Origin: a bacterium
GTDB lineage: Bacteria > Patescibacteriota > Minisyncoccia > UBA6257 > MFKM01
Assembly (NCBI GenBank): GCA_030693325.1
Contig: JAUYAV010000019.1
Span: 134,618-198,617, forward strand
Direction: 5' to 3'
DNA length: 64,000 nucleotides
This document shows, piece by piece, positions 4,395 to 62,967 of the stretch. The notes below the pieces were generated by a model. The model worked only from the letters and a program-made list of their open reading frames with translations, had not been told where the DNA came from and did no database searches. Each line of letters starts with the position of its first letter. The first letter of the stretch is position 1. A program made the translations under genes and the position numbers.

Positions 4395-4423
4395 TAAGAA
4401 AGAGTTTTTTCCTAAAGGAAGTT

Positions 4424-4461
4424 TACTATTGTAATTCCACGATCGTGGAATTACAATAGTA
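4424..4461. repeat. 38-bp perfect palindrome TACTATTGTAATTCCACGATCGTGGAATTACAATAGTA (copy 1 of 3)
   Basis: Identical copies at ~55180 and ~62817; here it sits just upstream of the grpE promoter. Confidence 0.9.
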
Positions 4462-9165: not shown

Positions 9166-10218
9166 TTGGCAATGGAAATCATTTTTTTAATCGTTATTTT
9201 ATTGGTTTTATTGGGCGGCTTGGCGCTGATTTTTTGGTTTTTGAAAAATCGTTTAGCAGTGCCGAAAAATGACGAGCAATCTTTGCTGATGATTCAAAAC
9301 CAGATTGGTGAAATTACCAAAACTCTTGATAATAAACTTGGTGAGTCAACTAAAAGTATGCAAAGCCAGTTTGACAGCAGTAGCCGGTTAATCAAAGAAA
9401 TCACCCAGGAACTTACTAAAGTCGGTGAAGGGCAAAAGCAGGTGGTGGATGTCGCAAGGCAGTTGGAGGACCTTCAGGATATTTTAAAGAATCCGAAACA
9501 ACGGGGAAATTTGGGCGAATACTCCCTGGAACTGTTATTGCAGAATTTTTTTCCTCATAATTACGAATCCCAGTATGAATTTAAAGACGGCACGAAAGTT
9601 GATTTTATAATCCGCATTAAGGATAAAATTATCCCGATTGATTCTAAATTCAGTTTGGAAAATTATCAGAGAATTTCAGAAGCTAATGACGAAAACCAAA
9701 AGCAGAAACTGGAAGAAGCTTTTAAAAGCGATATCAAAAAACGCATTGATGAAACGGCTAAATATATCAAGCCGGAAGAAAATACGATGGATTTCGCTTT
9801 TATGTTTATTCCAAGCGAAGCGATTTATTATGACCTTTTAGTTAATAAAATCGGCGCTTTGAAAGTTAATACCCGCGATTTGATAGAGTATGCCACGAGA
9901 GAAAAGAAAGTGATTATCGTTTCGCCAACGTCATTTATAGCTTATCTTCAAACCGTTCTTCAGGGCCTGAAAGCCATGCATATAGAAGAAGAAACGAAGA
10001 CAATTATTAAAAACGTAGAAGAATTAAGACGGCATTTGATCGGTTATGCCGATTTTTCTAAAAAAATAGGAGTGCATCTGGGCACGACCGTTAATATGTA
10101 TAATCAATCACAAAAGGAATTCAAGAAAATAGATAAAGACGTTTTGAGAATTACGGGCAAGGTAGTGGGAGTAGAGCCCTTGAATTTAGAAAGTCCGGAA
10201 AATGAAGACGGAGAATAA
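9166..10218 (+). CDS. rmuC: DNA recombination protein RmuC-like
   Basis: N-terminal TM segment, long coiled coil and an RmuC-type C-terminal domain. Confidence 0.6.
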   Translation: MAMEIIFLIVILLVLLGGLALIFWFLKNRLAVPKNDEQSLLMIQNQIGEITKTLDNKLGESTKSMQSQFDSSSRLIKEITQELTKVGEGQKQVVDVARQLEDLQDILKNPKQRGNLGEYSLELLLQNFFPHNYESQYEFKDGTKVDFIIRIKDKIIPIDSKFSLENYQRISEANDENQKQKLEEAFKSDIKKRIDETAKYIKPEENTMDFAFMFIPSEAIYYDLLVNKIGALKVNTRDLIEYATREKKVIIVSPTSFIAYLQTVLQGLKAMHIEEETKTIIKNVEELRRHLIGYADFSKKIGVHLGTTVNMYNQSQKEFKKIDKDVLRITGKVVGVEPLNLESPENEDGE

Positions 10219-11098
10219 AGTTGAGAAATTTTACGAGCGGCTTGGCAGGCCGTCTGGTGATTTTTCTTTGAAAAGACGCCAGCAGGACGTTCTTTTTGAC
10301 AAAAAGTGGCTGCGGTTTCTGAAACTATCGCATTTTTTCAGGCATTTGCCTTTTATAGATTTTATTTTAGGAGCCGGGTCAATGGCGCTGGGGAATGTCC
10401 ACCAAGATTCGGATTTTGATGTTATTGTTGGAGCAAAATCCGGCAGAATTTTTACGGCCAGATTTTTTTGTATTTTAATGTTCGGTTTATTGGGCCGGCG
10501 CCGCCACGCTAAGCGTGGCTATCTGCCCCGCTCAGCGGGGCGCCAAAAACTTTCACATCGGGAAGCCGCCAGTAATAAAATTTGTTTTAATCATTTTGTC
10601 ACTCCGCGGAGTTATTGCCTGAAACCGCCCCACAATATTTATTGGCGGGAACTTTATCAGAATTTGGTTCCGATTTACGGCCGAAAAGAAAAAATCAGGG
10701 AATTTTTTGAAGCCAATAATTGGATGGGGGAGCGGATTTACCCCGTTAGAAGTTCAGCTAAGTTTTCGGGTTTTTCAACGAACGAAAGCGAATTCGCCTG
10801 CGGCTCCAATTTTTCAAAGAAAAAAGCTTTGTTGAAAACTTCTAACGGGGTTTATTCCGATGACTTGCGCCATGGATTTTATGAGCCGAGTTTTATTGCT
10901 TCTATTTTGGAAAAAATGTTAAGCGGCCGGTTTGGTGATTTTATAGAACGAATATTGAAACAAATTCAAATTAAAAGAATTAAAAAAAGCCCGAAAGACA
11001 GTTTGGGATTTGAGCCGCGAATGGTTTTCAATAATGATGAACTGGAGTTTCATCCCGACACCTTGAGAATCCATAAATTGCTGTCCGATGAAAAGTAA
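10202..11098 (+). CDS. Hypothetical protein with a Pol-beta-like nucleotidyltransferase motif (GS…DSDFDV). It hosts a copy of the GC-rich in-frame element.
   Basis: GAGSMALGNVHQDSDFDVIV; GC-rich palindromic insert at 10498-10545. Confidence 0.4.
   Translation: MKTENKVEKFYERLGRPSGDFSLKRRQQDVLFDKKWLRFLKLSHFFRHLPFIDFILGAGSMALGNVHQDSDFDVIVGAKSGRIFTARFFCILMFGLLGRRRHAKRGYLPRSAGRQKLSHREAASNKICFNHFVTPRSYCLKPPHNIYWRELYQNLVPIYGRKEKIREFFEANNWMGERIYPVRSSAKFSGFSTNESEFACGSNFSKKKALLKTSNGVYSDDLRHGFYEPSFIASILEKMLSGRFGDFIERILKQIQIKRIKKSPKDSLGFEPRMVFNNDELEFHPDTLRIHKLLSDEK
10498..10545. repeat. GC-rich ~48-bp double-hairpin element (GGCGCC-GCCACGCTAAGCGTGGC-TATCT-GCCCCGCTCAGCGGGGC-GCC), in-frame inside the CDS
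   Basis: Near-identical to the reverse complement of 18810-18855 inside fusA. Confidence 0.85.
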
Positions 11099-15655: not shown

Positions 15656-15729
15656 TGGTCGGGCTGCCGGGAATCGAACCCGGGCTAAATCTACCCCATA
15701 GACTCGTGCTACCATTACACCACAACCCG
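15656..15729 (-). tRNA. tRNA-Pro (anticodon GGG), CCA encoded
   Basis: Manual fold: acceptor CGGGUUG/CAGCCCG; anticodon loop AUGGGGU; T-loop GGTTCGATTCC. Confidence 0.75.
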
Positions 15730-15753: not shown

Positions 15754-16515
15754 ATGAGAAAAGCAAAACATCGGAATGGTGTGCGATATTCTCTATGGGT
15801 AAAAGAAAAGACAGTCGCGTTACGGCAGGAGGGAAAAACTCATCGTGAGATTGTGAAAGAATTGGGCATTAGTCTCGGCTCTGCTGATTTATGGACGAAG
15901 GGGATAGCGTTGTCGCGCGAACAGAAAATTGCGATACAAAGAAGGCGTAATAAGCATATCTTTACGCCCAAAGAAAGAAAATTAATATCAGAGAGATTGA
16001 GGCCATTTCAATATCAATTGCAATATCGCAATGAAGATCTGATTGATAAAATAAGAAAATTTTATGCGGAAAACGGGAGAATTCCTCTCAAGCGCGAGTT
16101 TAATTCCCTCAGAATTTTTAGAGAACGTTTTGGTAGCTGGAATAATGCAATTAAATTAGCCGGATTTGAACCAAATCAAGTTATATTCTCAAAGAAATTC
16201 ATCGCTAAAGACGGACATATTTGTGATTCATTTGCGGAAAAAATCGTAGATGATTGGTTATCCTACTACCGCATTAAACATGAGAGAAACTTTCCTTATG
16301 AAAACACAAAAATGACCGCTGATTTTAAGACGGGCAATTTTTTGATAGAATATTTTGGCCTTGCCGGAGAAATAAAAGTTTATGATCAATTAATCAAAAA
16401 GAAAAGAATTTTAGCCAGAGATAGAAAAATGAGCCTTATTGAAATTTATCCCAAAAATTTATTTTCAAAAGATTATAAAACTTTTTTAAGAAAAATATTC
16501 AAACCGCTATCTTAG
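15754..16515 (+). CDS. Hypothetical protein with an N-terminal HTH, an HNH-endonuclease-associated repeat (GSWNNAIKLAGF) and a possible C-terminal nuclease-like domain
   Basis: REIVKELGIS HTH; FRERFGSWNNAIKLAGFEP matches the HNH-associated repeat; adjacent to tRNA-Pro. Confidence 0.4.
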   Translation: MRKAKHRNGVRYSLWVKEKTVALRQEGKTHREIVKELGISLGSADLWTKGIALSREQKIAIQRRRNKHIFTPKERKLISERLRPFQYQLQYRNEDLIDKIRKFYAENGRIPLKREFNSLRIFRERFGSWNNAIKLAGFEPNQVIFSKKFIAKDGHICDSFAEKIVDDWLSYYRIKHERNFPYENTKMTADFKTGNFLIEYFGLAGEIKVYDQLIKKKRILARDRKMSLIEIYPKNLFSKDYKTFLRKIFKPLS

Positions 16516-17412: not shown

Positions 17413-17551
17413 TTGACCCCGTTAGAAGCCTGACGAATCCTAAATTAAGCAACAATCAACAAAGTCCTGTTTAAAATAAAAATTTAATTCAATCTAGAAA
17501 CAGAAAAATTTAATAAATTTTTCTGTTTTAGGGCTTCTAACGGGGTTGACA
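17413..17551. repeat. Family-A palindromic MITE-like element, copy 1 (TIR ACCCCGTTAGAAGCC…GGCTTCTAACGGGGT). Its right end carries a TTGACA -35 box for rpsL.
   Basis: 15-bp terminal inverted repeats and internal hairpin acagaaaaattt…aaatttttctgt; homologous copies at ~22583 and ~58841. Confidence 0.85.
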
Positions 17552-18521: not shown

Positions 18522-18575
18522 GTAATTACTGTAATTACAGTAATTACAGCAATTACAGCAATTACCGTAATTACT
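18522..18575. repeat. Six tandem 9-bp repeats GTAATTACN in the rpsG–fusA spacer
   Basis: gtaattact gtaattaca gtaattaca gcaattaca gcaattacc gtaattact. Confidence 0.9.
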
Positions 18576-18584
18576 ATTTTTTTT

Positions 18585-20711
18585 ATGCGTCAATATCCTT
18601 TAGAAAAATATCGTGATATCGGCATCATTGCCCACATTGATGCTGGGAAAACAACCGTTTCCGAACGGATTCTTTTTTACACCGGAATTTCCCATAAAAT
18701 CGGCGAGGTTCATACCGGCGATACCGTTATGGACTGGATGGAGCAGGAAAGAGAAAGAGGAATTACGATTACGGCGGCGGCCACGACTTGCTACTGGACC
18801 CCGACTTACGGCGCCCCGCTGAGCGGGGTAGATAGCCACGCTGAGCGTGGCGGCGACGAATACAGAATCAATATTATTGACACTCCGGGCCATATTGATT
18901 TTACCGTTGAAGTTCAGCGTTCACTGAGGGTGCTTGACGGCGGAGTGGTTGTTTTTGACGGCGTGGCGGGAGTGGAGCCGCAGTCGGAAACGGTCTGGCG
19001 TCAGGCGGACAAATACAAAGTGCCGCGGATTTGTTTTGTGAACAAGCTTGACAGGATGGGAGCTGATTTTGAAAAAACTTTACGGTCCATCAGAGAGCGC
19101 TTGCACCCGAAACCGGCAGTGCTTCAGTGGCCTATCGGCCTTGAAGAAAAATTTGAAGGCGTTATTGATTTGTTAAAACGGCAGGCCTTTTATTTTGAAG
19201 GGGATCATGGTGAAAAAATAATTGCTAAAGAAATCCCGGAAAATTTTAAAAAAACGGCTGAAGAAAAAAGAGAAAAATTAGTGGAGATGATTGCCGAAAC
19301 CGATGACAATTTATTACATCGCTATCTTGAAGGCCAGGAAATCAGCCAAGAGGATTTGAAAAAGACGCTAAGAGTTGCCTCCTTAAAAGGAGAATTAATT
19401 CCTGTGCTTTGCGGCAGCGCTTTGAAAAATAAAGGCGTTCAGCTTCTCTTGGACGCGGTTGTTGATTATTTGCCTTCGCCGCTTGATTTGCCGCCGGTAA
19501 AAGGCATTAACCCGGATAATCAAAAAGAAGAAGAAAGGTCAGCTAAAGACGGGCAGCCGTTTGCCGCTCTGGCTTTTAAAATCGCAACCGATCCGTTTGT
19601 GGGCTCGCTGACTTTTTTCCGGGTTTATTCCGGGGTGCTTCAAAAAGGGACTTATGTTTTAAACGTTTCCAAAAATTCTCAGGAAAGAATCGGCCGGATT
19701 TTGCGAATGCACGCCAATCACCGGGAAGAAGTGGATGAAGTTTGCGCGGGCGACCTTGGGGCTTTTGTGGGTTTAAAAAACACCACGACCGGAGATACTC
19801 TTTGCGACCCCGAGCACCCGATTATTTTGGAAAAAATTGTTTTCCCCGAGCCGGTCATTTCTATTCGGATTGAACCGAAAACCAAAGTTGACCAGGAAAA
19901 AATGTCTATGGCTTTGCATAGGCTTTTAGAGGAAGATCCGACTTTCAAAGTGATTGGCGACCCCGATACCGGCGAAACTATTATTTGGGGGATGGGGGAG
20001 CTTCATTTGGAAATTATTGTTGACCGGATGAAACGGGAATTCAGCGTTGAATGCAGTGTCGGCCGGCCTCAAGTGGCTTACAAGGAAACCATAGTTGGAA
20101 CGGCTGAAGCCGAAGGCAAATACATTCGCCAATCCGGCGGTCGCGGTCAATACGGTCATGTCTTTTTGAGAGTGGAACCCTTGGAACGAGGGAAGGGCTT
20201 TGAATTTGTTAATGCTATTAAAGGAGGCACTATTCCCTCGGAATTTATTCCGGCCGCGGAAAAAGGAGTTAAAGAAGCGATGGACAAAGGCGTTTTGGCC
20301 GGCTATCCTTTTGTTGACACCAAAGTCACGCTTTATGACGGTTCTTACCACGATGTTGATTCTTCGGAAGCGGCTTTCAAAATCGCCGGGTCTATCGCTT
20401 TCCAGGAAGCGGTAAAAAGAGCCAAAATGGTTTTACTGGAGCCGATGATGAAAGTTCAGGTGATTACCCCGCCGAATTTCTTGGGCGATGTCACTGGCGA
20501 CCTTAACGCCCGCCGGGGCAAGATTGAGGCCATGACCGAAAGAATTGGAATTAATGTCATTGACGTGAAAGTTCCTTTGTCGGAAATGTTCGGTTATGCC
20601 ACTAATATAAGGTCAATGACCCAGGGCCGCGGCAGTTTCACGATGGAATTTAACAGCTATGAAGAAGTGCCCAATAATATTACTCAGCGGATTGCCGAGG
20701 GCAAAAAATAA
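18585..20711 (+). CDS. fusA: Elongation factor G. It carries a ~12-aa insertion, encoded by the GC-rich element, just before the [11 protein letters not shown]3 motif.
   Basis: [14 protein letters not shown] and full EF-G domains. Confidence 0.97.
18810..18855. repeat. GC-rich double-hairpin element inside fusA, in reverse orientation relative to the copy at 10498
   Basis: ggcgcc-ccgctgagcgggg-tagata-gccacgctgagcgtggc-ggcg encodes [18 protein letters not shown]. Confidence 0.85.
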
Positions 20712-22585: not shown

Positions 22586-22708
22586 ACCCCGTTAGAAGTC
22601 ATGACGAATTCCAAGCTAAATAATTATTAACGGGAATGGAAATTTAATTTATTTTCCAAAAACAGAAAAAATTTTAAAATTTTTTCTGGCCAAGACTTCT
22701 AACGGGGT
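22583..22708. repeat. Family-A palindromic element, copy 2, inserted between rpsJ and rplC
   Basis: CCCCGTTAGAAGTC…GACTTCTAACGGGG with the same internal acagaaaaa/tttttctg hairpin. Confidence 0.85.
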
Positions 22709-22719
22709 TTAAAACAAAT

Positions 22720-23169
22720 ATGAGTTTAATAACAGGAAAAAAATTACAAATGAGCCAGATTTTCAAAGACGGAAAAGTAATTCCGGTTACCCCGATTAAG
22801 GTTGCCGATATTTCGGTTTTTAATGAAGGCGAATTGCTCAAGATAACCGGAATAAGCCGCGGTATAGGATTTCAGGGCGTAGTCAAACGCTGGGGTTTCC
22901 ATGGCGGACCGAAAAGTCATGGGGGTAAACACAGCTTGCGGGCTCCAGGCTCAATCGGCTCAACCGCGCCTCAGCGGGTGTTAAAAGGCAGGAAAATGGC
23001 CGGTCGAACCGGCGGCCGCCAAAAAACCATCGGAAATCTTGAAGTAGTTTCTTTAAATAAAGAAAATGCCGTTTTAATGGTGAAAGGAGCGATACCCGGC
23101 TATAAAAATTCAGAAATTAAAATTCAGAAAGACGCCAGTCATAAAGCATTAAAAAAGAAATTACGGTAA
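22720..23169 (+). CDS. rplC: 50S ribosomal protein L3 (short, 149 aa)
   Basis: L3 N-terminal KKLQMSQIF…GFQGVVKRWGF. Confidence 0.9.
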   Translation: MSLITGKKLQMSQIFKDGKVIPVTPIKVADISVFNEGELLKITGISRGIGFQGVVKRWGFHGGPKSHGGKHSLRAPGSIGSTAPQRVLKGRKMAGRTGGRQKTIGNLEVVSLNKENAVLMVKGAIPGYKNSEIKIQKDASHKALKKKLR

Positions 23170-23199
23170 TTGCCGTAATTACTGTAATTACAGTAATTT
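23170..23199. repeat. Three tandem TTAC[AT]GTAA 9-mers in the rplC–rplD spacer
   Basis: ttgccgtaattactgtaattacagtaattta. Confidence 0.85.
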
Positions 23200-23841: not shown

Positions 23842-23859
23842 GTAATTACAGTAATTACA
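23842..23859. repeat. Two tandem GTAATTACA 9-mers in the rplD–rplW spacer
   Basis: gtaattacagtaattaca. Confidence 0.8.
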
Positions 23860-23867
23860 AAAAAACT

Positions 23868-38147: not shown

Positions 38148-38219
38148 GGGTGTGTAGTTCAGTGGTAGAACGCTGTCCTGATAAGACAGAGGTCGGAGGT
38201 TCGATCCCTCCCACACCCA
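38148..38219 (+). tRNA. tRNA-Ile (anticodon GAT)
   Basis: Manual fold: acceptor GGGUGUG/CACACCC; anticodon loop CUGAUAA; T-loop GGTTCGATCC; no encoded CCA. Confidence 0.75.
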
Positions 38220-38261
38220 CTGGAAGAGTTCATTAATAATTCAGTTAAAAAGGAGGAAAGG

Positions 38262-39419: not shown

Positions 39420-39491
39420 GGGCCCGTAGTTCAGTGGTAGAACGCCTCATTTGCAATGAGGAGATCAGCGGTTCGATCCCGCTCGGGTCCA
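39420..39491 (+). tRNA. tRNA-Ala (anticodon TGC) with the G3:U70 identity pair
   Basis: Manual fold: GGGCCCG…CGGGUCC acceptor with G3·U70; anticodon loop UUUGCAA. Confidence 0.8.
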
Positions 39492-39602
39492 CAGGAACAA
39501 AGATTATTTCTTCCCAATTTTATGCTGTGGATAACTTGCTTTGGACTTTCTATTTACTTTCTAGTATACTGAAGCTGATAGTGAAAAGTTAATCCACACA
39601 TT

Positions 39603-41078
39603 ATGCTTACTAAACGCCAAAAACAAATTCTCGATTTTATTACCGACTATCAAAAACGAAAAAGGTATGCCCCCACTCTTGAAGATATATGCAAAAAATT
39701 TAAACTTGCATCGGTTTCAACGGCTCATTTTCATATTTCCAAACTTCGTGATTTGGGATATTTAACGAAGGAAGAAAACAAGCCTCGTTCCATCTCTGTT
39801 TCGAAACACGAGCAAATGGTTAAAATCCCTCTTTTGGGGACCATTGCCGCCGGACAACCAATTGAAGCAATCCAAAACAAAGAAATGATTGCGGTTCCCA
39901 AAAGTATGCTTCCACGTTCGTCGGAAGTATACGCGCTCCGCGTTGTTGGAAATAGTATGATTGACGAGAATATCAACGACGGCGATATCGTTTTAGTAAG
40001 ACAACAAGAAACAGCGGAGAATGGGCAAAAGGTCGTGGCGCTTATTGATAACCACGAAGCAACGCTCAAAAAGTATTATCAAGAGCGAGGACATATTCGC
40101 CTACAACCAGCTAATAAAAATATGGAGCCGATCATATTGCGAAATGGTCGGGATATTTCCATACAAGGAATAGTGCTTGATGTGATCAGAGATGCTGGCA
40201 CAGCTACTCTTAAGAAAGAACAAGTGAAAATGTATTCCGATACAAAACTATTAAAAAATACGCTTATATCTAAACCATATTATGAAAAACCAAAATTCAA
40301 ACTTTACCAAGCAAACTGCTTGGACATTCTTGCCAAACTTTCTGAAAATTCTGTTGATATGATTTTTGCCGATCCCCCCTATAATCTTTCAAACGGAGGC
40401 ATTACCGTTCACGCTGGACGAATGGTTAGCGTCAATAAAGGAGATTGGGACAAGAGCAAGGGATTCAAAGATGATTACGATTTTCATTACAAATGGATAG
40501 ATGCCTGTCGGAGAGTTTTAAAACCCCATGGTACACTTTGGGTTAGTGGCACTTACCATTCAATTTATCAATGCGGTTATGCTTTGCAGTCACTTGGATA
40601 CCAAATTCTAAACGATGTCGCTTGGTTCAAACCAAACGCATCGCCGAATTTAAGTTGCCGATATTTTACGGCAAGCCATGAAACTTTACTTTGGGCGAGA
40701 AAGGATAAAAAGGCAAAACATATTTTCAATTATGCTTTAATGAAAAATGGCAACTGGCCGGAAGATCAGCTAAAAAAACCAGGGCTTCAAATGCGTTCGG
40801 TTTGGGCGATGGGAACACCGAAAACAATTGAAAAAAGATTTGGAAAACATCCTACGCAAAAACCGGAAGATTTACTAAAACGAATCGTGCTTGCCTCAAC
40901 TAACAAGGGCGATTTAGTTGTTGATCCATTCACTGGAAGTTCAACAACTGGAATTGCCGCCTATCTTTTGGGACGGCACTTTATCGGTGTTGATACTGAA
41001 CCAAAGTATTTGGATGTATCAATAAAGCGATTTGAGGAATTGGATCGCAATCTAAAAAATAAATACAAAAAAGTATGA
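39603..41078 (+). CDS. Fusion protein: a full LexA-like repressor (wHTH, Ala-Gly cleavage site, S24 Ser/Lys peptidase) joined to a beta-class N6-adenine (DPPY) DNA methyltransferase
   Basis: LexA part: LGTIAAGQP, VVGNSM and ATLKKY. MTase part: IFADPPYNLS (motif IV) followed by VVDPFTGSSTTG (motif I). Confidence 0.8.
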   Translation: MLTKRQKQILDFITDYQKRKRYAPTLEDICKKFKLASVSTAHFHISKLRDLGYLTKEENKPRSISVSKHEQMVKIPLLGTIAAGQPIEAIQNKEMIAVPKSMLPRSSEVYALRVVGNSMIDENINDGDIVLVRQQETAENGQKVVALIDNHEATLKKYYQERGHIRLQPANKNMEPIILRNGRDISIQGIVLDVIRDAGTATLKKEQVKMYSDTKLLKNTLISKPYYEKPKFKLYQANCLDILAKLSENSVDMIFADPPYNLSNGGITVHAGRMVSVNKGDWDKSKGFKDDYDFHYKWIDACRRVLKPHGTLWVSGTYHSIYQCGYALQSLGYQILNDVAWFKPNASPNLSCRYFTASHETLLWARKDKKAKHIFNYALMKNGNWPEDQLKKPGLQMRSVWAMGTPKTIEKRFGKHPTQKPEDLLKRIVLASTNKGDLVVDPFTGSSTTGIAAYLLGRHFIGVDTEPKYLDVSIKRFEELDRNLKNKYKKV

Positions 41079-43088: not shown

Positions 43089-44216
43089 ATGGAGCCGTTA
43101 GCATCAAAAATAAGACCGAAAATTTTGGAAGAATTTGTCGGTCAGGAGCATTTAGTCGGAGAAGGAAAGCCTTTTAATATAGCTATAAAACAAAAGCATT
43201 TGTTTTCTTTTATTTTATGGGGGCCTCCTGGAACCGGAAAAACTACTTTGGCCAAGATATATGCCAATAGTCTGAACGCAAAAATTTATGAATTGTCCGC
43301 GGTTTCGGCCGGAAAAGCGGATATCAGAAAAATACTAGAAGAAGACTCGGACGGAGTTCCTAAAGTTTTATTTTTAGACGAAATACATCGCTTTAATAAA
43401 TCCCAGCAGGACTTTCTGCTTCCTTATGTTGAAAGAGGGGAGATAATTTTGATTGGCGCCACTACCGAAAATCCGAGTTTTGAAGTGATATCGGCTTTGC
43501 TTTCCCGATGCCGAGTTTTCGTTTTAAATGAACTTTCAGAAAATAACATAAAGGCCATTATTAAAAGAACCGGAATGAAAATGGATGAAGCGGCGGAAGA
43601 TTGGCTGGTAAATGCGGCCAATGGCGATGCCAGACAAGTAATAACTTTGTTGGAAAACACCAGCGAACTTTATAAAAAGATTACGGTGGAAAATTTAAAA
43701 AACGTTCTCCAATCAAAGTTTTTGAGATACGACAAAGTCGGGGAAGAACATTACAACACTATTTCCGCCTTTATCAAAAGCATGAGAGCGAGCCAGCCTG
43801 ATGCGGCTTTGTATTATTTGGCTCGGATGATTGATTCCGGCGAAGACCCAAAATTTATAGCCAGAAGAATGGTTATTTTTGCTTCCGAGGATATTGGTTT
43901 GGCTCAGCCCACAGCCTTAGTAGTGGCTAATGATGTTTTTCGGGCCGTGGAAATAATCGGTCTGCCCGAATGCGGTATTAATTTGGCTCACGGAGTAGCT
44001 CATCTGTGCCAGTGTAAAAAAGACAGAAGAGCCCATGATGCTTATATGGAAGCGATGGAAGACGTAAAAAATTTCGGCAATCTTCCTATCCCTTTAAGTT
44101 TGCGGAATCCTGAGACAAAATTAATGAAAGATTTAAATTACGGCAAAGGATACGAAAAATATTCCAAGGAATCTTTTCTGCCCGAAAAATTAAAAGGAAA
44201 AAAATATTTAAAATAA
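43089..44216 (+). CDS. rarA: Replication-associated recombination protein RarA/MgsA (AAA+)
   Basis: WGPPGTGKTTLA; FLDEIHRFNKSQQD; MgsA C-terminal helical domain. Confidence 0.9.
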   Translation: MEPLASKIRPKILEEFVGQEHLVGEGKPFNIAIKQKHLFSFILWGPPGTGKTTLAKIYANSLNAKIYELSAVSAGKADIRKILEEDSDGVPKVLFLDEIHRFNKSQQDFLLPYVERGEIILIGATTENPSFEVISALLSRCRVFVLNELSENNIKAIIKRTGMKMDEAAEDWLVNAANGDARQVITLLENTSELYKKITVENLKNVLQSKFLRYDKVGEEHYNTISAFIKSMRASQPDAALYYLARMIDSGEDPKFIARRMVIFASEDIGLAQPTALVVANDVFRAVEIIGLPECGINLAHGVAHLCQCKKDRRAHDAYMEAMEDVKNFGNLPIPLSLRNPETKLMKDLNYGKGYEKYSKESFLPEKLKGKKYLK

Positions 44217-47200
44217 TGCCCCTGAATCTGGAAAAACTTAATAAAGAGCAAAAAGAAGCCGTGGTTCATGGCCAGGGGCCGCTTTTGATTGTGGCCGGAG
44301 CCGGAACCGGCAAAACGACGGTTATCACCCAGAGAATAGTTAATTTAATTGAAAAGGAGAAAGTTAAACCTGAAGAAATATTGGCCGTCACTTTTACCGA
44401 AAAGGCGGCCGCGGAAATGGAAGAAAGGGTTGATATTCTTTTGCCTTATGGCTATGTGGATTTGTGGATTTCCACTTTCCATTCTTTCTGCGAAAGGGTC
44501 TTGCGCGATTACGCTTTGGATATCGGCTTGCCGGCGGATTTTAAGATTTTAGACAACACGGCCGGCTGGCTTTTGGTTTATCGCAATCTGGAAAAATTCA
44601 ATCTCGATTATTACAAACCCCTGGGGAATCCGACCAAATTTATCCAGGCCCTGATTTCTCATTTTTCCCATTGCAAAGACCAGGCGATTTATCCCGAAGA
44701 TTATTTAAAATACGCCGAAAAGCTGAAAACCCGGGATGACGCGCCGGAAGAAAATGAAACCGAGAGGATAAAAGAAGTGGCGAACGCTTACCATGTTTAT
44801 CAGCGTTTGCTTTTGGAGAACAGTTCTCTGGATTTTGGCGATTTGATAAATTATTGTTTGAAATTGTTTCAGAAAAGGCCGCTGATTTTGAAAAAATATC
44901 GGGAAAAATTCAAATACATTTTAGTTGACGAATTTCAGGACACCAACTGGGCGCAATACGAGCTTATAAAAATCTTAGCGGCGCCGAAAAATAATCTGAC
45001 CGTCTGTGCCGACGATGACCAATGTTTGCCGGGCAATTCAAAAATAGAGATTTTTGAGAACGATAAAATCAAAATAAAGGAAATTAAAAAAATTGAAATA
45101 GGCGATAAAGCATTAACAGCCGTAGGAAAAGGTCATATAGGGGTTGCTAATGTGAATAATGTTTTCGTCAAAAACAAGAGGGCAAAGATATTAACCGTTA
45201 AAACAGAAGGCGGCTATTCAGTAAGCGTGACAGATAATCATAAAATGTTTTGCTGTGTTCCAAGAACTGCTCGGCAGAATTATCATTATGTTTATTTGAT
45301 GTTTAGAAAAAATTTGGGGTGGAGGATAGGGGTAACTGATGATTTAATTTTGCGGCTTAGGATAGAGCGTTCGGCAGATAAAATTTTGGCAATAAGGGCC
45401 TTTAACACTGATTCTGAAGCGAGATATCACGAAACATTGTGGTCGTTGAAGTACGGCATACCCACTTGTTGTTTTAAAAGCAGGGAAGGCATCGTTATCA
45501 AAGAAAATGAGTTGGCTAAATTATATAAGGAAATTAATACCGAAGATAATATACGGAAATTAGCTCAAGATTTAAATATTGACTTAGATTCGCCCCATTA
45601 TTGTCTAGATGCCGTTAACAGGGGAAGAAGCGTCAGGATAATCATCAATTTGCAAATGTGCTACAGAAATTACCGAAGCAAGGAACACGTCAGAAGCGAG
45701 AAAACTCTGCTTTTGAATGGCTTGACAAGGCACAGGCTTTATTTGGAAACGTCAGACAAGCAAACAATTAAGAAGCTAAAAACAGCAGGATATATTCTTT
45801 ATAAAGCGAGGAAAGGAATGAAATTAAACATAGAAGGAGGCGATGTAAAAGATCTTGAAGGAAAAGCAAGAGCGATAGAAAAAATTACAGGCGGATTCAT
45901 AGAATATAAATTTAATGTTGCGAGCAAATACAGCAAGCCGTCAGGCACGGCACGAAATTATATGTCTTTGATTATGCCCGCAAAAAATTTAGTTTTAGGA
46001 CACTATCTTCCGGTAAAAAAAGGCGCTGAGATAATTTACGATAAAATAATTTCAATTAAAGAAGTTGATAAAAAAATAAAAGTATATGATTTGGAAATCG
46101 ACAAAACCCATAATTTTATAGCCAACGGAATAGTGGTCCACAATTCTGTTTATAGGTGGAGAGGGGCATCTTATAGCAACATAGTCCAATTCAATAAAGA
46201 TTTCCCGAAAGCCGAGCAAATTTCTTTGGTTAAAAATTACCGGTCCGGCCAGAATATTTTGGATTTGGCTTATAAATTCATAAAAGCCAATAATCCCGAC
46301 CGCCTTGAATACGTAAATAAAATAAACAAGGAATTAATCGCCCAGGAAAAAGGTGAAGGCAAAATAGAGCATATTTTGGCGAAGAACCTGGAAGAAGAAG
46401 TTGATAAAACAATAAAGAAGATCTTAGGGATTCTTAAAAAAGACAAAGACGCCGGTTATAACGATTTTGCGATTTTAGTCAGAGCCAATGACGCGGCCAA
46501 TCCTTTTATTAAGGCCCTGGAGCGCGCGGGCTTGCCTTATCAATTTTTGGCTTCAAGAGGGCTTTATTCAAAGCCGGTTATTTTGGACGTAATCTCATAT
46601 TTCAAACTTTTGGATAATTACCACGAGAGCCCGGCGGTTTACCGGATCTTGAATATGCCATTTTTGGAAATCCCGCCCGCGGATATTATGAAGCTTACTC
46701 AATACAGCCACAAAAAAACAAAGTCGCTTTATGAGGCGATGGAAGAGCTTCCTCTAATTCCGGGAATTTCTCCGGAAGTTCAGGAAAAAATCCTTTTCGT
46801 TTTGAGCTTGATTAAAAAACACGCCATTTTTGCCAAAGAAAAATCGGTCTCGGAAATAATGATTGCATTTCTTAAAGAGTCGGGATATATAAAATATTTA
46901 ACGAAAAAAGACGACAAAGAACAGTTTGATTTACTCAATCAATTCCATAAAAAAGTGAAGAATTTTGAGAGTGCGGCAATAGAGCCGACTTTAGGCAATT
47001 TTATGCGGGAAATAAATCTTGAGATAGAATCCGGCGAAGAAGGAAAGCTTGAATTTGACCCCGAGCAAGGCCCGGACATGATAAAAATAATGACTATCCA
47101 CGGAGCTAAGGGCTTGGAATTCAAATATGTTTTTTTGGTTAATATGGTGGATAAAAGATTTCCGACAATGGAAAGAAAGGATTTAATTGAGCTACCCGAA

Positions 47201-48298
47201 GATTTAATCAAAGACATAAAGCCAACTGGGGATGTTCATTTGCAGGAAGAAAGGCGCATTTGCTATGTGGCCATTACCAGAGCCAAGAAAGATATTTATT
47301 TCACTTCGGCTGAAGATTATGGCGGGGTGAGAAAAAAGAAATTGTCTCGCTTTCTGATTGAAATGGGATACCAGGAAAAAACTGAAAAACCGAAAAACTT
47401 AAAAACTCAAAACGAAATGCTCGCGGAGAAACCGATTTCGGTCGGGACAAAAAACAAGCCGATGCCGGATTATCTGCCGAAACATTTTTCGTATTCGCAA
47501 TTGGCGGCTTTTGACAAGTGTCCGTTGCAGTATAAATTCGCTTTTATTCTGAAGGTTCCGACCAGAGGCAAGGCCGTGTTTTCTTTCGGGAAGACGATGC
47601 ATAATACTTTTTATGAATTTTTAAAATACGCCAACGAAGGCAGCGCGAGCAATCAAACAAATTTGTTCGGGTTTGAAGAAAAAACAATTAAGGCCGGTAA
47701 AAAAGCCCTGTCTGCCGGCAGGCATGAAAAATCTTTAGATTTAGACGATTTAACGGAAATTTATGAGAAAAACTGGATTGACGAATGGTATGAGAGTAAA
47801 AAACAAAAAGAGGATTATCGCAAGCTCGGCAGGAAAATAATTAAAGATTTTTATGATGAATTTGTAAAAAATCCGCCGAAAGTTTTAAAAATCAATAATG
47901 CCTTTGCTTTGGAAATGCCGTTTAACCTGAAAATAGGGGGATATGCCTTATACGGCGTGGTGGACAGAATTGATGAAGAGGATGGTGGCGTGACCATCAT
48001 TGATTACAAAACAGGAAATTCTAAAGACAAGCTGTATCCGGGCGATAAAGAACAATTGTTGATTTATCAGATAGCGGCTGAAGAGATATTCAAACTAAAG
48101 CCCCAAAAATTGGCTTATCATTATTTAACCGACGGCAAGAAAGCGTCTTTTCTCGGAACGGAAAAAGAGAAAGAACAGCTGAAAGAAAAAATAATCCAAG
48201 AGATTGAAGAAATAAAAGGCAGTGATTTCAAGGCGAAGCCGAGTCAGCTTTGCGCTTTCTGCGATTTCAAGGATATTTGCGATTCCGCTCAGAGATAG
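44216..48298 (+). CDS. UvrD/PcrA-family helicase fused to a C-terminal RecB/Cas4-like PD-(D/E)xK nuclease (AddA-like). It is interrupted by an intein in helicase motif III.
   Basis: AGAGTGKTT; DEFQDTN; …CADDDQ|C…HN|SVYRWRGAS; C-terminal IIDYKTG and CAFCDFKDICD. Confidence 0.9.
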   Translation: MPLNLEKLNKEQKEAVVHGQGPLLIVAGAGTGKTTVITQRIVNLIEKEKVKPEEILAVTFTEKAAAEMEERVDILLPYGYVDLWISTFHSFCERVLRDYALDIGLPADFKILDNTAGWLLVYRNLEKFNLDYYKPLGNPTKFIQALISHFSHCKDQAIYPEDYLKYAEKLKTRDDAPEENETERIKEVANAYHVYQRLLLENSSLDFGDLINYCLKLFQKRPLILKKYREKFKYILVDEFQDTNWAQYELIKILAAPKNNLTVCADDDQCLPGNSKIEIFENDKIKIKEIKKIEIGDKALTAVGKGHIGVANVNNVFVKNKRAKILTVKTEGGYSVSVTDNHKMFCCVPRTARQNYHYVYLMFRKNLGWRIGVTDDLILRLRIERSADKILAIRAFNTDSEARYHETLWSLKYGIPTCCFKSREGIVIKENELAKLYKEINTEDNIRKLAQDLNIDLDSPHYCLDAVNRGRSVRIIINLQMCYRNYRSKEHVRSEKTLLLNGLTRHRLYLETSDKQTIKKLKTAGYILYKARKGMKLNIEGGDVKDLEGKARAIEKITGGFIEYKFNVASKYSKPSGTARNYMSLIMPAKNLVLGHYLPVKKGAEIIYDKIISIKEVDKKIKVYDLEIDKTHNFIANGIVVHNSVYRWRGASYSNIVQFNKDFPKAEQISLVKNYRSGQNILDLAYKFIKANNPDRLEYVNKINKELIAQEKGEGKIEHILAKNLEEEVDKTIKKILGILKKDKDAGYNDFAILVRANDAANPFIKALERAGLPYQFLASRGLYSKPVILDVISYFKLLDNYHESPAVYRILNMPFLEIPPADIMKLTQYSHKKTKSLYEAMEELPLIPGISPEVQEKILFVLSLIKKHAIFAKEKSVSEIMIAFLKESGYIKYLTKKDDKEQFDLLNQFHKKVKNFESAAIEPTLGNFMREINLEIESGEEGKLEFDPEQGPDMIKIMTIHGAKGLEFKYVFLVNMVDKRFPTMERKDLIELPEDLIKDIKPTGDVHLQEERRICYVAITRAKKDIYFTSAEDYGGVRKKKLSRFLIEMGYQEKTEKPKNLKTQNEMLAEKPISVGTKNKPMPDYLPKHFSYSQLAAFDKCPLQYKFAFILKVPTRGKAVFSFGKTMHNTFYEFLKYANEGSASNQTNLFGFEEKTIKAGKKALSAGRHEKSLDLDDLTEIYEKNWIDEWYESKKQKEDYRKLGRKIIKDFYDEFVKNPPKVLKINNAFALEMPFNLKIGGYALYGVVDRIDEEDGGVTIIDYKTGNSKDKLYPGDKEQLLIYQIAAEEIFKLKPQKLAYHYLTDGKKASFLGTEKEKEQLKEKIIQEIEEIKGSDFKAKPSQLCAFCDFKDICDSAQR
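45023..46144 (+). mobile_element. Intein (~374 aa) with a putative, degenerate homing-endonuclease core
   Basis: Cys1 (CLPGNSKI); block B TDNHKM; C-terminal VVHN followed by Ser+1; the extein motif III DDDQ/SVYRWRGA is restored on excision. Confidence 0.8.
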
Positions 48299-49701: not shown

Positions 49702-49783
49702 GCCCAGGTGGCGGAACTGGTATACGCGTGCGTTCGAGGGGCGCATGCCGCAAGGATTGAGGGTTCAAATCCCTCCCTGGGCA
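49702..49783 (+). tRNA. Type II (long variable arm) tRNA with a Leu-like body (A73, GCGG…CGCG D-arm). The anticodon reading is ambiguous: GAG (Leu) or CGA.
   Basis: Manual fold: acceptor GCCCAGG/CCUGGGC; T-arm GAGGGTTCAAATCCCTC; anticodon region GUGCGUUCGAGGGGCGCA. Confidence 0.7.
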
Positions 49784-49855
49784 CATTATCCTTGCTTAAT
49801 AATCGGTTTTTTGTTAATATTAAAATACCCAAGCGGGTATTTTAATTTTGTCTAT

Positions 49856-55179: not shown

Positions 55180-55217
55180 TACTATTGTAATTCCACGATC
55201 GTGGAATTACAATAGTA
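55180..55217. repeat. 38-bp perfect palindrome, copy 2, between the convergent gatB and miaA genes; it overlaps the last miaA codons
   Basis: Identical to 4424-4461. Confidence 0.9.
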
Positions 55218-56142
55218 AAAATTTATTTGCCATTGAACGGGCCTGATTTTCCGTCTTAATCCAAATAATACTTTTATCCCTTTTAAACCAGGTTATCTGG
55301 CGTTTGGCGTAGCGGTAAATTTCTTTTTTCATTTGCTCGGTCATTTCTTCATAAGAAATCAAACCGCGCAGATAATCGGCGGCCAGCCGGTATTCCAAGC
55401 CCAATTCCCCAAACCGTTTCCAGTTTAGTCCTTTTTTGTGGAGTTTTTCTATTTCTTCAATCAGACCTTTTTTCAGCGTTTTTTCCAATCTTTGATTGAT
55501 TAACTGCCGAAGTTCGTTTGGTGTTTTTTTGATGCCTATTTTTAATACCGCAAACGCGGTCGCTGATTTCCGCTGATTCCGCTGATTTACGCTGATAGCA
55601 TTTCGCTCTAACGGCGGTACGGGAGATCCGGTTGTGATAACGATTTCCAGGGCCCTGACTAATCTTCTTCGGTTGCAAGGGTCAATATTAGCCGCTCTTT
55701 TGGGATCAAATTTCTGAAGCATCCGGAAAAGTTCTTCTAATGATTTTTTTTCAAGCCGTTTTCGCAAACCTTTCTGAGGAGCCACGGCCGGCAATTTATA
55801 ATCATAAATCAAAGCGTCAATGTAAAATCCGCTGCCGCCGACTATTATTGGAAATTTATTTTTTTTAAAAATTCCATTCAGGATTTTTTTGGCCGCTTTT
55901 TGATATTGGACCACAGTATAAGTTTTTTGCGGCTTAACAATGTCAATCATATGATGTTTGACGCCTTTCATTTCTTTTTTGGTTATTTTTTCCGTGCCGA
56001 TATTCAGTCCTTTATAAATCTGGCGGGAGTCAGCCGAAATTATTTCGCCGTTAAATTTCTTGGCGATTTTAATGGCCAATTGCGATTTCCCGGAAGCCGT
56101 CGGCCCGAGAATGACGATGATTTTATTATTTATATTTTTCAT
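55207..56142 (-). CDS. miaA: tRNA dimethylallyltransferase
   Basis: GPTASGKS P-loop; IISADSRQIY. Confidence 0.9.
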   Translation of the reverse strand: MKNINNKIIVILGPTASGKSQLAIKIAKKFNGEIISADSRQIYKGLNIGTEKITKKEMKGVKHHMIDIVKPQKTYTVVQYQKAAKKILNGIFKKNKFPIIVGGSGFYIDALIYDYKLPAVAPQKGLRKRLEKKSLEELFRMLQKFDPKRAANIDPCNRRRLVRALEIVITTGSPVPPLERNAISVNQRNQRKSATAFAVLKIGIKKTPNELRQLINQRLEKTLKKGLIEEIEKLHKKGLNWKRFGELGLEYRLAADYLRGLISYEEMTEQMKKEIYRYAKRQITWFKRDKSIIWIKTENQARSMANKFLLL

Positions 56143-58840: not shown

Positions 58841-58973
58841 CACCCCGTTAGAAGTCTGGTTCATGTTTAATAATGATTATTATTTTAATTAAAAATTCAT
58901 ATTTGATTAACCTATCTGTTATGACAGAAAAATTTCTATAGAAATTTTTCTGTTCAAGACTTCTAATGGGGTT
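58841..58973. repeat. Family-A palindromic element, copy 3, filling the gap between the dnaE stop and the thrS start
   Basis: CCCCGTTAGAAGTC…GACTTCTAATGGGG with the internal acagaaaaattt…aaatttttctgt hairpin. Confidence 0.85.
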
Positions 58974-62783: not shown

Positions 62784-62816
62784 TCCACAACACAATTTAA
62801 ATTACTAAATTCAATT

Positions 62817-62854
62817 ACTATTGTAATTCCACGATCGTGGAATTACAATAGTAA
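62817..62854. repeat. 38-bp perfect palindrome, copy 3
   Basis: Identical to 4424-4461. Confidence 0.9.
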
Positions 62855-62967
62855 AATTGGAGTTGAACTTCTTTTGCCGGGTTTGACCTTTTTTTAGAAA
62901 TATCATAAGATTAATTATTATTAATTGTATTTAGTGTGAGTAATTTGTAGTTAGGAATAAATTTTTC

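Follow-up and report, generated by a model that had tools for sequence, protein, structure and literature searches.

The window considered here, a stretch of 64,000 nucleotides (nt) from a bacterium of the Patescibacteriota (assembly GCA_030693325.1, contig JAUYAV010000019.1, positions 134,618 to 198,617 of the forward strand), contains two copies of a GC-rich double-hairpin sequence, each located in frame within a protein-coding gene and each an insertion relative to close orthologues of that gene. One (copy A) interrupts host gene 1, which codes for a protein of 298 amino acids (aa), and the other (copy B) lies in reverse orientation within fusA, the gene for elongation factor G (EF-G). Taken as a whole, the data make it probable that both are copies of a 39-nt non-autonomous GC-rich palindromic repeat which is mobile, selective in its choice of target, and translated when located in genes. 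Relevant coordinates are collected in Table 1.

The unit consists of two 17-nt hairpins separated by a 5-nt spacer and can be written GCCACGCTnAGCGTGGC-TATCT-rCCCCGCTCAGCGGGGC. Copies A and B differ at only two positions (37/39 identical), and a repeat search of the window recovered the pair as 49-nt arms with 94% complementarity. A 42-nt core pattern matched the window at these two places only, with no matches expected from 100 dinucleotide-preserving shuffles, and neither of the hairpin motifs CCACGCTnAGCGTGG and CCCCGCTnAGCGGGG occurred elsewhere in the 64 kb. At 72% the GC content of the element far exceeds the 40.8% recorded for the window, values which agree with the ~70% and ~40% reported in the initial annotation of this DNA. 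RNA folding of the copy A region predicted two hairpins of 7-8 bp (ΔG of the hairpins -29 to -36 kcal/mol), together with an alternative fold in which the whole unit forms one long imperfect hairpin, possible because hairpins 1 and 2 resemble each other.

That annotation had described a larger unit of 48 nt flanked by GGCGCC. The 48-mer (GGCGCC...GCC) is present, although displaced by one position from the 10498-10545 assigned to it (10497-10544), and its reverse-complement partner, given as 18810-18855, was confirmed with a true span of 18810-18857 on the minus strand. The gaps observed in orthologous DNA nevertheless reduce the inserted unit to 39 nt, and since GGCGCC already occurs in the uninterrupted alleles, it belongs to the host target sequence and not to the element. 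The further statements that both copies preserve the frame of their host genes, and the peptides quoted for them, proved correct.

Alignment with orthologues, the means suggested at the outset for displaying each insert as an indel, gave a clean 13-aa gap at both sites, the close orthologues being devoid of the residues concerned. For copy A, more than 25 homologues (including P0122, 78% identity) read GLLGRR-RQKL where the window protein carries 13 residues between GLLGRR and RQKL, and the DNA gap in the orthologue L120/P0122 is exactly 39 nt. The description of this host as 'nucleotidyltransferase-like' is matched by a weak motif similarity to a minimal nucleotidyltransferase (E = 0.047), and no Pfam match accompanied it. 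Copy A is also present in one other metagenome-assembled genome (MAG), JAVHOD01 (protein P0123, contig JAVHOD010000045, locus L026), where it is identical at all 39 positions, compared with 89.7% identity for the rest of the gene and 80% at third codon positions (P about 0.013). In the AlphaFold2 model of the host protein (mean predicted local distance difference test score, pLDDT, 75), a helix spanning residues 83-104 ends within the first residues of the insert, and the only segments with pLDDT below 50 are residues 107-117, which overlap the C-terminal half of the insert (~101-113) and the linker just beyond it, and residues 181-218, which correspond to a second insert of 38 residues.

For copy B the host gene is located in the bacterial str/S10/spc ribosomal operon and its homologues come from Patescibacteria. 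Among EF-G relatives drawn from a collection of 5.8 billion proteins, the closest (P0003, P0004-P0006, P0008, P0009, P0011; 85-90% identity) read YWTPTYGG-DEY/EEY with no insert, whereas the window EF-G reads YWTPTYG, 13 additional residues, then GDEY. The corresponding fusA DNA of L119, L124, L125 and L126 is ACTTATGGCGGCGA, and the window is 39 nt longer at this point. The insertion falls in a turn of the G domain where Patescibacteria EF-Gs carry from 0 to ~27 extra residues, and alignments to solved Thermus EF-G structures break at the same place. Copy B was found in this organism only, in assemblies of one sample.

This restriction of copy B to one sample, together with the status of the EF-G turn as a hot spot that holds other inserts in other lineages, would accord with a chimeric assembly, with similarity by chance, or with an early loop that later disappeared from relatives. 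Such an origin is nonetheless extremely improbable, given that no chance matches were expected, that the frame is preserved in both genes, that copy A occurs independently in a second MAG (L026), that precise 39-nt gaps are seen in several relatives, and that members of the same family occupy many other genomes.

The EF-G turn itself accommodates unrelated inserts of 6-27 residues in other Patescibacteria (P0002, P0007, P0018-P0044; L129:5027-7156), examples being GPSTSSGQARG and INADLDADQRRK. In P0002, an EF-G with 89% identity, the insert holds a remnant palindrome, GCGCGCAAGTTAGCGCG, which could be a decayed relative of the element. Host gene 1 likewise contains a second, unrelated in-frame palindromic insert of 112 nt, MITE-like (resembling a miniature inverted-repeat transposable element) with perfect 15-nt terminal inverted repeats, whose 38-aa product is shared only with P0122. 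It belongs to a family of 112-131 nt with terminal inverted repeats of 13-15 nt, ACCCCGTTAGAAG(TY), the ends of which gave 9 matches in the window against 1.6 expected; the three intergenic siblings lie upstream of rpsL, between rpsJ and rplC, and next to dnaE. At the protein level, further short inserts with GC-rich-codon peptides were seen in other homologues of the 298-aa protein (P0127, P0129, P0130, P0132, P0133, P0136), namely GFDHAERG (8 aa, with the appearance of a single CCACGCTGAGCGTGG hairpin), PAYAKPACRTGRASAGK, GLRHAEAGSGLAKAG and GLPAQAG.

Read on the element strand, both empty sites contain CGCCGCCA^WAAG. That of copy A in a relative is GGCGCCGCCA^AAAG and that of copy B in relatives is GTCGCCGCCA^TAAG (also given as TCGCCGCCA^TAAGT), the two being identical at 12 of 14 positions. 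The octamer CGCCGCCA has six occurrences on both strands of the window, two of which are the insertion sites, and its sharing by two random insertions would not be expected. Short direct repeats flank both copies (Table 1); across the family these run from 2 to 8 nt, with a median of 5-6 compared with about 3 in a shuffled control, and reach into the GCCA with which the element begins. Immediately before CCA stand three bases that vary from site to site yet match on the left and right of each copy (GAG/GAG, CAG/CAG, GCA/GCA, TGG/TGG, TCG/TCG), so that duplication of the target is favoured over copying of a donor flank.

Flanking repeats that vary in length and extend into the element's own first bases, and window targets that share 8 nt including its first four bases, also accord with spread that needs no dedicated enzyme, in which a hairpin-stalled polymerase followed by microhomology-mediated template switching, or gene conversion, would act between a copy and a site sharing GCC(A). 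No transposase was present among the window open reading frames (ORFs) scanned, which fits the same explanation, and the IS200/IS605-type ends exemplified by IS608 contain sub-terminal cleavage sites for which the element is too short, a further point in its favour. The site-specific bases before CCA are nevertheless identical on both sides of a copy, whereas copying from a donor would bring the donor flank with it, and enzyme-free spread is on balance rather doubtful.

Table 1. Coordinates within the window of the two element copies, their host genes and other features mentioned in the text.
Feature	Position	Strand	Details
Copy A, 39-nt double-hairpin element	10503-10541	+	inside the 298-aa gene; adds 13 residues
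Copy A, hairpin 1	10503-10519		GCCACGC-TAA-GCGTGGC
Copy A, spacer			TATCT
Copy A, hairpin 2	10525-10541		GCCCCGC-TCA-GCGGGGC
Copy B, reverse orientation within fusA	18813-18851	-	adds 13 residues
Copy B, letters of the + strand			GCCCCGC-TGA-GCGGGGT, AGATA, GCCACGC-TGA-GCGTGGC
Direct repeat at copy A	10502-10506 (left), 10541-10545 (right)	+	CGCCA, 5 nt
Direct repeat at copy B	18810-18813 (left), 18849-18852 (right)	+	GGCG; element strand CGCCA/CGCCG
Host gene 1	10202-11098	+	298 aa, conserved in Patescibacteria; GSxxxGNxxxxSDFDV motif; no Pfam family
Host gene 2, fusA (elongation factor G)	18585-20711	+	708 aa; all five EF-G Pfam domains
MITE-like insert in host gene 1	10740-10851		112 nt
MITE-like siblings	17416-17546, 22586-22708, 58842-58972		intergenic
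tRNA genes	15656-15729, 38148-38220, 39420-39492, 49702-49784		none encodes 3′ CCA
ORF adjoining tRNA-Pro	15754-16515		homing-endonuclease-associated repeat (HNH_repeat)
Tandem arrays of a 9-nt unit	18522-18572, 23157-23198, 23842-23865		intergenic; the first between rpsG and fusA
Perfect 40-nt palindrome	4422-4461, 55180-55219, 62815-62855		intergenic
UvrD/AddA-type helicase-nuclease	44216-48295		1360 aa; intein-interrupted
LexA/S24 peptidase/DNA methylase ORF	39603-41075		single ORF

The two window copies belong to a wider family. A scan of 185,579 species-representative genomes (the window's own genome being outside this set) with a pattern fixing only the hairpin cores yielded 69 loci, and a metagenome scan 48 more; after removal of duplicates, genomes and metagenomes together provided 64 distinct copies, nearly all of them in low-GC Patescibacteria MAGs or metagenome contigs. 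Symmetric double hairpins were recorded in low-GC MAGs of Saccharibacteria, Paceibacterota, Komeili-, Sung-, Ames-, Andersen- and Staskawiczbacteria, and in a few bins labelled otherwise, and members of the family occupy non-orthologous sites in many genomes. Matches in GC-rich Actinobacteria and Proteobacteria were set aside as one-strand chance matches or other tandem repeats.

The family core is CGCTNAGCG, each hairpin comprising a 7-bp stem and a 3-nt T-N-A loop, with spacers of 3-5 nt. Alignment of 49 distinct copies showed 98.4% of stem cells to be paired and 60 cells to be compensatory, compared with 18.3±3.5 in column shuffles (0 of 500 reached the observed value); covariation extended to all four stem positions left free by the pattern (G-C, C-G, A-U, U-A), and in shifted-register controls pairing fell to 27-57%. 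A copy in the MurD gene of L127, found through protein homology and not by the pattern, reads TCCCGC...GCGGGA in place of CCNCGC...GCGNGG, the hairpin being kept by a double change. These data support selection for self-complementarity, whether in single-stranded DNA, RNA or a duplex palindrome. Asymmetry of G·U wobble pairs, considered as a clue to the strand that folds, was uninformative (6 wobbles, 11 other mismatches).

A different, amplified form of the motif was recorded outside the candidate phyla radiation (CPR) in MAG CAJXLK01 (labelled Bacteroidetes, about 50% GC), where the same hairpin core, CCCCGCTNAGCGGGG, occurs as 87 hairpins in 120 kb, often in tandem with a 24-nt period (L002, L009, L013, L014, L018-L022, L027, L037, L043, L053, L064, L066, L069).

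Copies in frame within Pfam-confirmed genes were found for arginyl-tRNA synthetase (ArgRS), MurD, a DegT-family aminotransferase, a LigB-family protein (three orthologues), a 4Fe-4S protein and GvpL/F; relative to the host gene, in-gene cases comprised three in sense and five in antisense orientation. The MurD case, from another lineage, constitutes a third independent pair of filled and empty sites, the filled protein reading KAC[GPAKRGNSHAQRG]GK and more than 35 homologues KAC-GK. In P0251, a more distantly related MurD, a diverged copy occupies this position too, the result of insertion that was repeated or of a single old insertion that was precisely lost elsewhere. Two residues downstream, other MurD homologues (P0242-P0244, P0283) carry a different 11-residue insert (PRTRANSLRGR or PRSRASSLRGR) or ARPEQRR, which suggests that this site is a local hot spot for other small elements.

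In non-coding locations the unit measures 38 nt (29 copies) or 39 nt (24 copies), whereas within genes it is 39 nt in all six of the measurable independent insertions (A, B, ArgRS, MurD, DegT and the LigB-family set), the Fe-S and GvpL/F copies being omitted from this comparison as having no clear flanking repeat by which to define the unit. Depending on the frame, a hairpin reads H/P/R-A-K/Q/E-R-G, P-R-S/L-A or x-L-S-x, and stops arise from the loop base only. Placed in the frame of fusA, copy A would yield APLSGADSHA*RG, its TAG stop arising at the very loop base where copy B differs and has GAG instead. Because the two orientations encode different peptides, the peptide is not the conserved feature, and the hairpin probably is. 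To judge from frame and unit length, the in-gene inserts would be translated as 13 extra residues tolerated in loops; a 13-codon unit open in most frames would allow insertions in surface loops to survive and be translated with no function of their own.

Removal of the insert before or after translation, whether as a mini-intron, by bulge-helix-bulge-like excision or as a protein splicing element, is very improbable. The only pointers towards it are the obstacle that hairpins as stable as those predicted would pose to translation and the presence of an intein in one gene of the window. A unit of 39 nt is, however, far smaller than any self-splicing intron and 13 aa far smaller than an intein, there was no Rfam match to the insert, and the exclusive use of 39-nt units in genes, together with the stop-avoiding loop base in fusA, is expected only if ribosomes read the insert. 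The Rfam searches, run at a permissive threshold around copy A and at the gathering threshold over the window, returned only noise and the four tRNAs.

Homologues of both host proteins and of MurD contain further short GC-rich inserts of other sequence types; with the second, 112-nt insert in host gene 1, these make in-frame colonisation by small palindromes look like a general habit of these genomes.

The commonest location of the family is flush against the 3′ or 5′ end of a tRNA gene: 19 of the 64 distinct copies lie no more than 6 nt from a tRNA called by ARAGORN (11 at the 3′ end and 8 at the 5′ end), compared with an expectation of 0.28% in the same loci, and several further copies adjoin tRNA fragments. 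In copies at 3′ ends the N-CCA of the tRNA forms the first four bases of hairpin 1, and the pairing base of the element covaries with the tRNA discriminator (GCCA...TGGC vs ACCA...TGGT). The family has a preference for GC-rich (N)CCA-like sequence on either strand, which in these AT-rich genomes occurs mainly at the acceptor ends of tRNAs. No such hairpin adjoins any of the window's four tRNA genes.

Placement exactly at tRNA ends, with a stem that takes in the NCCA or the first bases of the tRNA, is also the pattern to be expected if CGCTNAGCG hairpins served the host, either as a signal for the 5′/3′ processing or stability of pre-tRNA or as a site at which a dimeric protein binds, while copies within genes would be by-products or would act in mRNA pausing or processing. 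The covariation of an element base with the discriminator, the retention of stems through compensatory change over phyla-level distances, the unchanged state of copy A in two species, and a palindrome that reaches its centre (GCTNAGC), as dimer-bound sites do, would all accord with such a role. A host function is nevertheless unlikely: from the bare ends of the window's tRNA genes it follows that this organism can express tRNAs with no such signal, most orthologues of both host genes manage with no element, both orientations relative to the host gene are represented, and presence or absence is sporadic among close relatives.

Several observations on tRNA genes stand apart from this question. 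In L003:6655-6760 and L057:3520-3580 what precedes the element is not a whole tRNA but a 3′ piece of tRNA-Asn, about 45 nt long in the former and about 10 nt in the latter, as expected of attachment-site duplications from an element integrated into tRNA-Asn. A proposal that hairpin 2 + N + CCA mimics a tRNA minihelix was retained only within the tentative interpretation given below: it fits the window copies and a few others, but 0 to 3 nt may separate the hairpin from CCA, and CCA is missing from the MurD target. Within the window, tRNA-Ile(GAT) and tRNA-Ala(TGC) lie 1.2 kb apart and no rRNA gene was detected. The ORF with a homing-endonuclease-associated repeat that adjoins tRNA-Pro is situated between the two host genes; no link between it and the element was established.

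Among all collected copies, the spacer TATCT is limited to copies A and B and that in L026, which makes the window copies the closest relatives of one another. Copy A, being shared with a sister species, is taken to be the older; copy B would be a younger, intragenomic derivative of copy A or of a sibling. The unchanged sequence of copy A could also be explained by constraint on the hairpin or by gene conversion. New copies would arise at GC-rich (N)CCA-like or CCG-like sites with an existing copy as their source, through either a trans-supplied enzyme recognising hairpins in single-stranded DNA or hairpin-promoted template switching.

A wider joint interpretation, which can be advanced only tentatively and as a whole, would envisage lineage-wide mobile double hairpins of 38-39 nt which home to sequences resembling the tRNA acceptor end and are mobilised by an enzyme. 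Such elements would be smaller than the bacterial in-frame repeats compared, the Rickettsia palindromic elements (RPEs) and MITEs. The 3′ arm of hairpin 1 would pair with the target (a GC-rich stretch plus NCCA, on either strand), the NCCA of the target would become part of the stem, and tRNA ends would be colonised; 39-nt units would also enter essential genes (fusA, argS, murD), and the putative mobilising activity would reside in an enzyme acting at the level of single-stranded DNA or RNA, one that the very small gene sets of these bacteria would make findable by phylogenetic profiling.

A number of observations weigh against a mobile repeat as the identity of the two copies. No transposase, RAYT or other candidate mobilising gene was present among the 64 window ORFs scanned or annotated, a scan of viral contigs for the double hairpin gave no matches, and mobility is read from distribution because no mobilising gene was found in the window, in viral contigs, or in phage or plasmid records. 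Copy number is low, with one or two pattern matches per genome in other Patescibacteria and two in the 64 kb of the window; further copies, for which the initial annotation had proposed a genome-wide scan, exist in many other Patescibacteria genomes, and none was found in the additional ~7 kb of the same assembly that was scanned beyond the window (~2.6 kb to the left and ~4.6 kb to the right). Target-site duplication and terminal microhomology are indistinguishable because the repeats overlap the element's own GCCA, and neither the MurD target, with no CCA, nor the variable repeat length (2-8 nt) suits a simple transposase. The conservation of the core is in part a product of ascertainment, the scans having required CGCTNAGCG, and a nucleic-acid function beneficial to the host would also be consistent with copy A being identical at 39/39 positions in two species, with the covariation of the stems and with pairing to tRNA discriminator bases.

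A comparison of the element sequence with phage and plasmid records by BLAST produced nothing meaningful, the one match being to Pantoea traC (85.7%, E = 0.02). A role as a DNA-uptake sequence, prompted by the presence of type IV pilus and DprA genes, was dismissed because the copy number is far too low.

The initial annotation had likened the sequences to in-frame palindromic mobile elements such as RPEs, though smaller and in a CPR genome, an assessment borne out by the gaps in orthologues, by relatives at non-orthologous sites, and by homologues named as Patescibacteria or Paceibacterota. RPEs are about 150 bp in length, form ten families, encode a conserved peptide and account for 44 insertions in one genome (PMC10969869). 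Like them, the element is palindromic, lies in frame in unrelated and often essential genes where it is tolerated, and has no known transposase, and RPEs are translated (PMC10969869). Unlike RPEs, for which sizes of ~100-150 bp apply, the element is 39 nt long, has a low copy number and encodes no conserved peptide, and unlike the family described here, RPEs are confined to Rickettsia and have no link to tRNA ends. It is thus set apart from the RPEs described by size, peptide and host, the hosts in this case being Patescibacteria.

In its behaviour the element resembles even more closely the GC clusters (such as yeast GC42 and the 48-nt cluster in var1) and double-hairpin elements of mitochondria, which are GC-rich hairpin units of 30-80 nt in AT-rich genomes, sporadic in distribution, with very short direct repeats, present singly, merged or in arrays, occasionally located in protein genes, and with no known mobilising enzyme (PMC4478555). 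Shared features are a short GC-rich two-hairpin unit (72% vs 41% GC), a dispersed distribution and some in-gene copies. The mitochondrial clusters are, however, organellar, mostly intergenic and of other sequence, whereas the present family has a bacterial host, retains its CGCTNAGCG core across very wide phylogenetic distances, and markedly favours tRNA ends. Double-hairpin elements were reportedly described by Paquin et al. in 2000 in Allomyces and other fungal and algal mitochondria, and the PstI palindromes of Neurospora mitochondria, double and GC-rich with CTGCAG cores, are said to have been the subject of 'Highly conserved GC-rich palindromic DNA sequences flank tRNA genes' (Yin, Heckman & RajBhandary 1981). 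Like those palindromes, members of the present family directly abut tRNA genes; unlike them, the family is neither organellar nor built on CTGCAG, and the window's own tRNA genes are unflanked.

REP/BIME/REPIN sequences are short GC-rich imperfect palindromes, often paired, which are mobilised by RAYTs (Y1 transposases of IS200/IS605 type) and are thought to act as single-stranded DNA hairpins. REPs insert beside a short specific sequence, are extragenic, reach hundreds of copies, possess a conserved GTAG head and co-occur with a RAYT gene. The window copies, by comparison, are intragenic, number two per 64 kb (one or two per genome elsewhere), have no GTAG beside their hairpins, and were accompanied by no Y1 transposase among the window ORFs scanned. 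MITEs are usually 50-500 bp, traceable to a family of insertion sequences (IS), and possess terminal inverted symmetry and short flanking repeats. Those of bacteria (ERIC, Correia, Nezha) are non-autonomous and can create in-frame fusions (PMC10969869). The ends of the element are similarly inverted (GCCACGC.../...GCGGGGC), making it an imperfect palindrome overall, but no IS transposase was identifiable in the window, and the 112-nt insert in host gene 1 fits the description of a MITE far better than does the 39-nt element. Since it departs from RPEs in size and peptide, and from the REP and organellar types in the features already given, the element is not a member of the families compared, and no earlier description for CPR, Patescibacteria or Parcubacteria was found in the open-access literature searched.

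If correct, these conclusions would add the candidate phyla radiation to Rickettsia and organelles as hosts of selfish DNA within protein-coding genes, with a unit of only 13 codons residing inside EF-G, among the most conserved proteins known. They would account for part of the unexplained short GC-rich indels in Patescibacteria protein alignments, indels that influence how genes are called, how phylogenomic alignments turn out and how structures are predicted in these organisms. Both the association with tRNA ends and the common CGCCGCCA target would offer a way into the question of how enzyme-less GC-rich hairpin elements move, in genomes that hold only about 1,000 genes.

Other repeats and unusual genes are also present in the window. 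Tandem arrays of a 9-nt unit, GTAATTAC(A/T)G, occur at three intergenic places in the str/S10 region, and a perfect 40-nt palindrome, TTTACTATTGTAATTCCACGATCGTGGAATTACAATAGTAA, has three copies, which may be bidirectional terminators or a third repeat family. The UvrD/AddA-type helicase-nuclease (UvrD-helicase, UvrD_C and PD-(D/E)XK domains) is interrupted by an intein with Intein_splicing/Hint domains at about residues 264-643, and in an unusual fusion one ORF joins LexA DNA-binding, S24 peptidase and N6/N4 DNA methylase domains.

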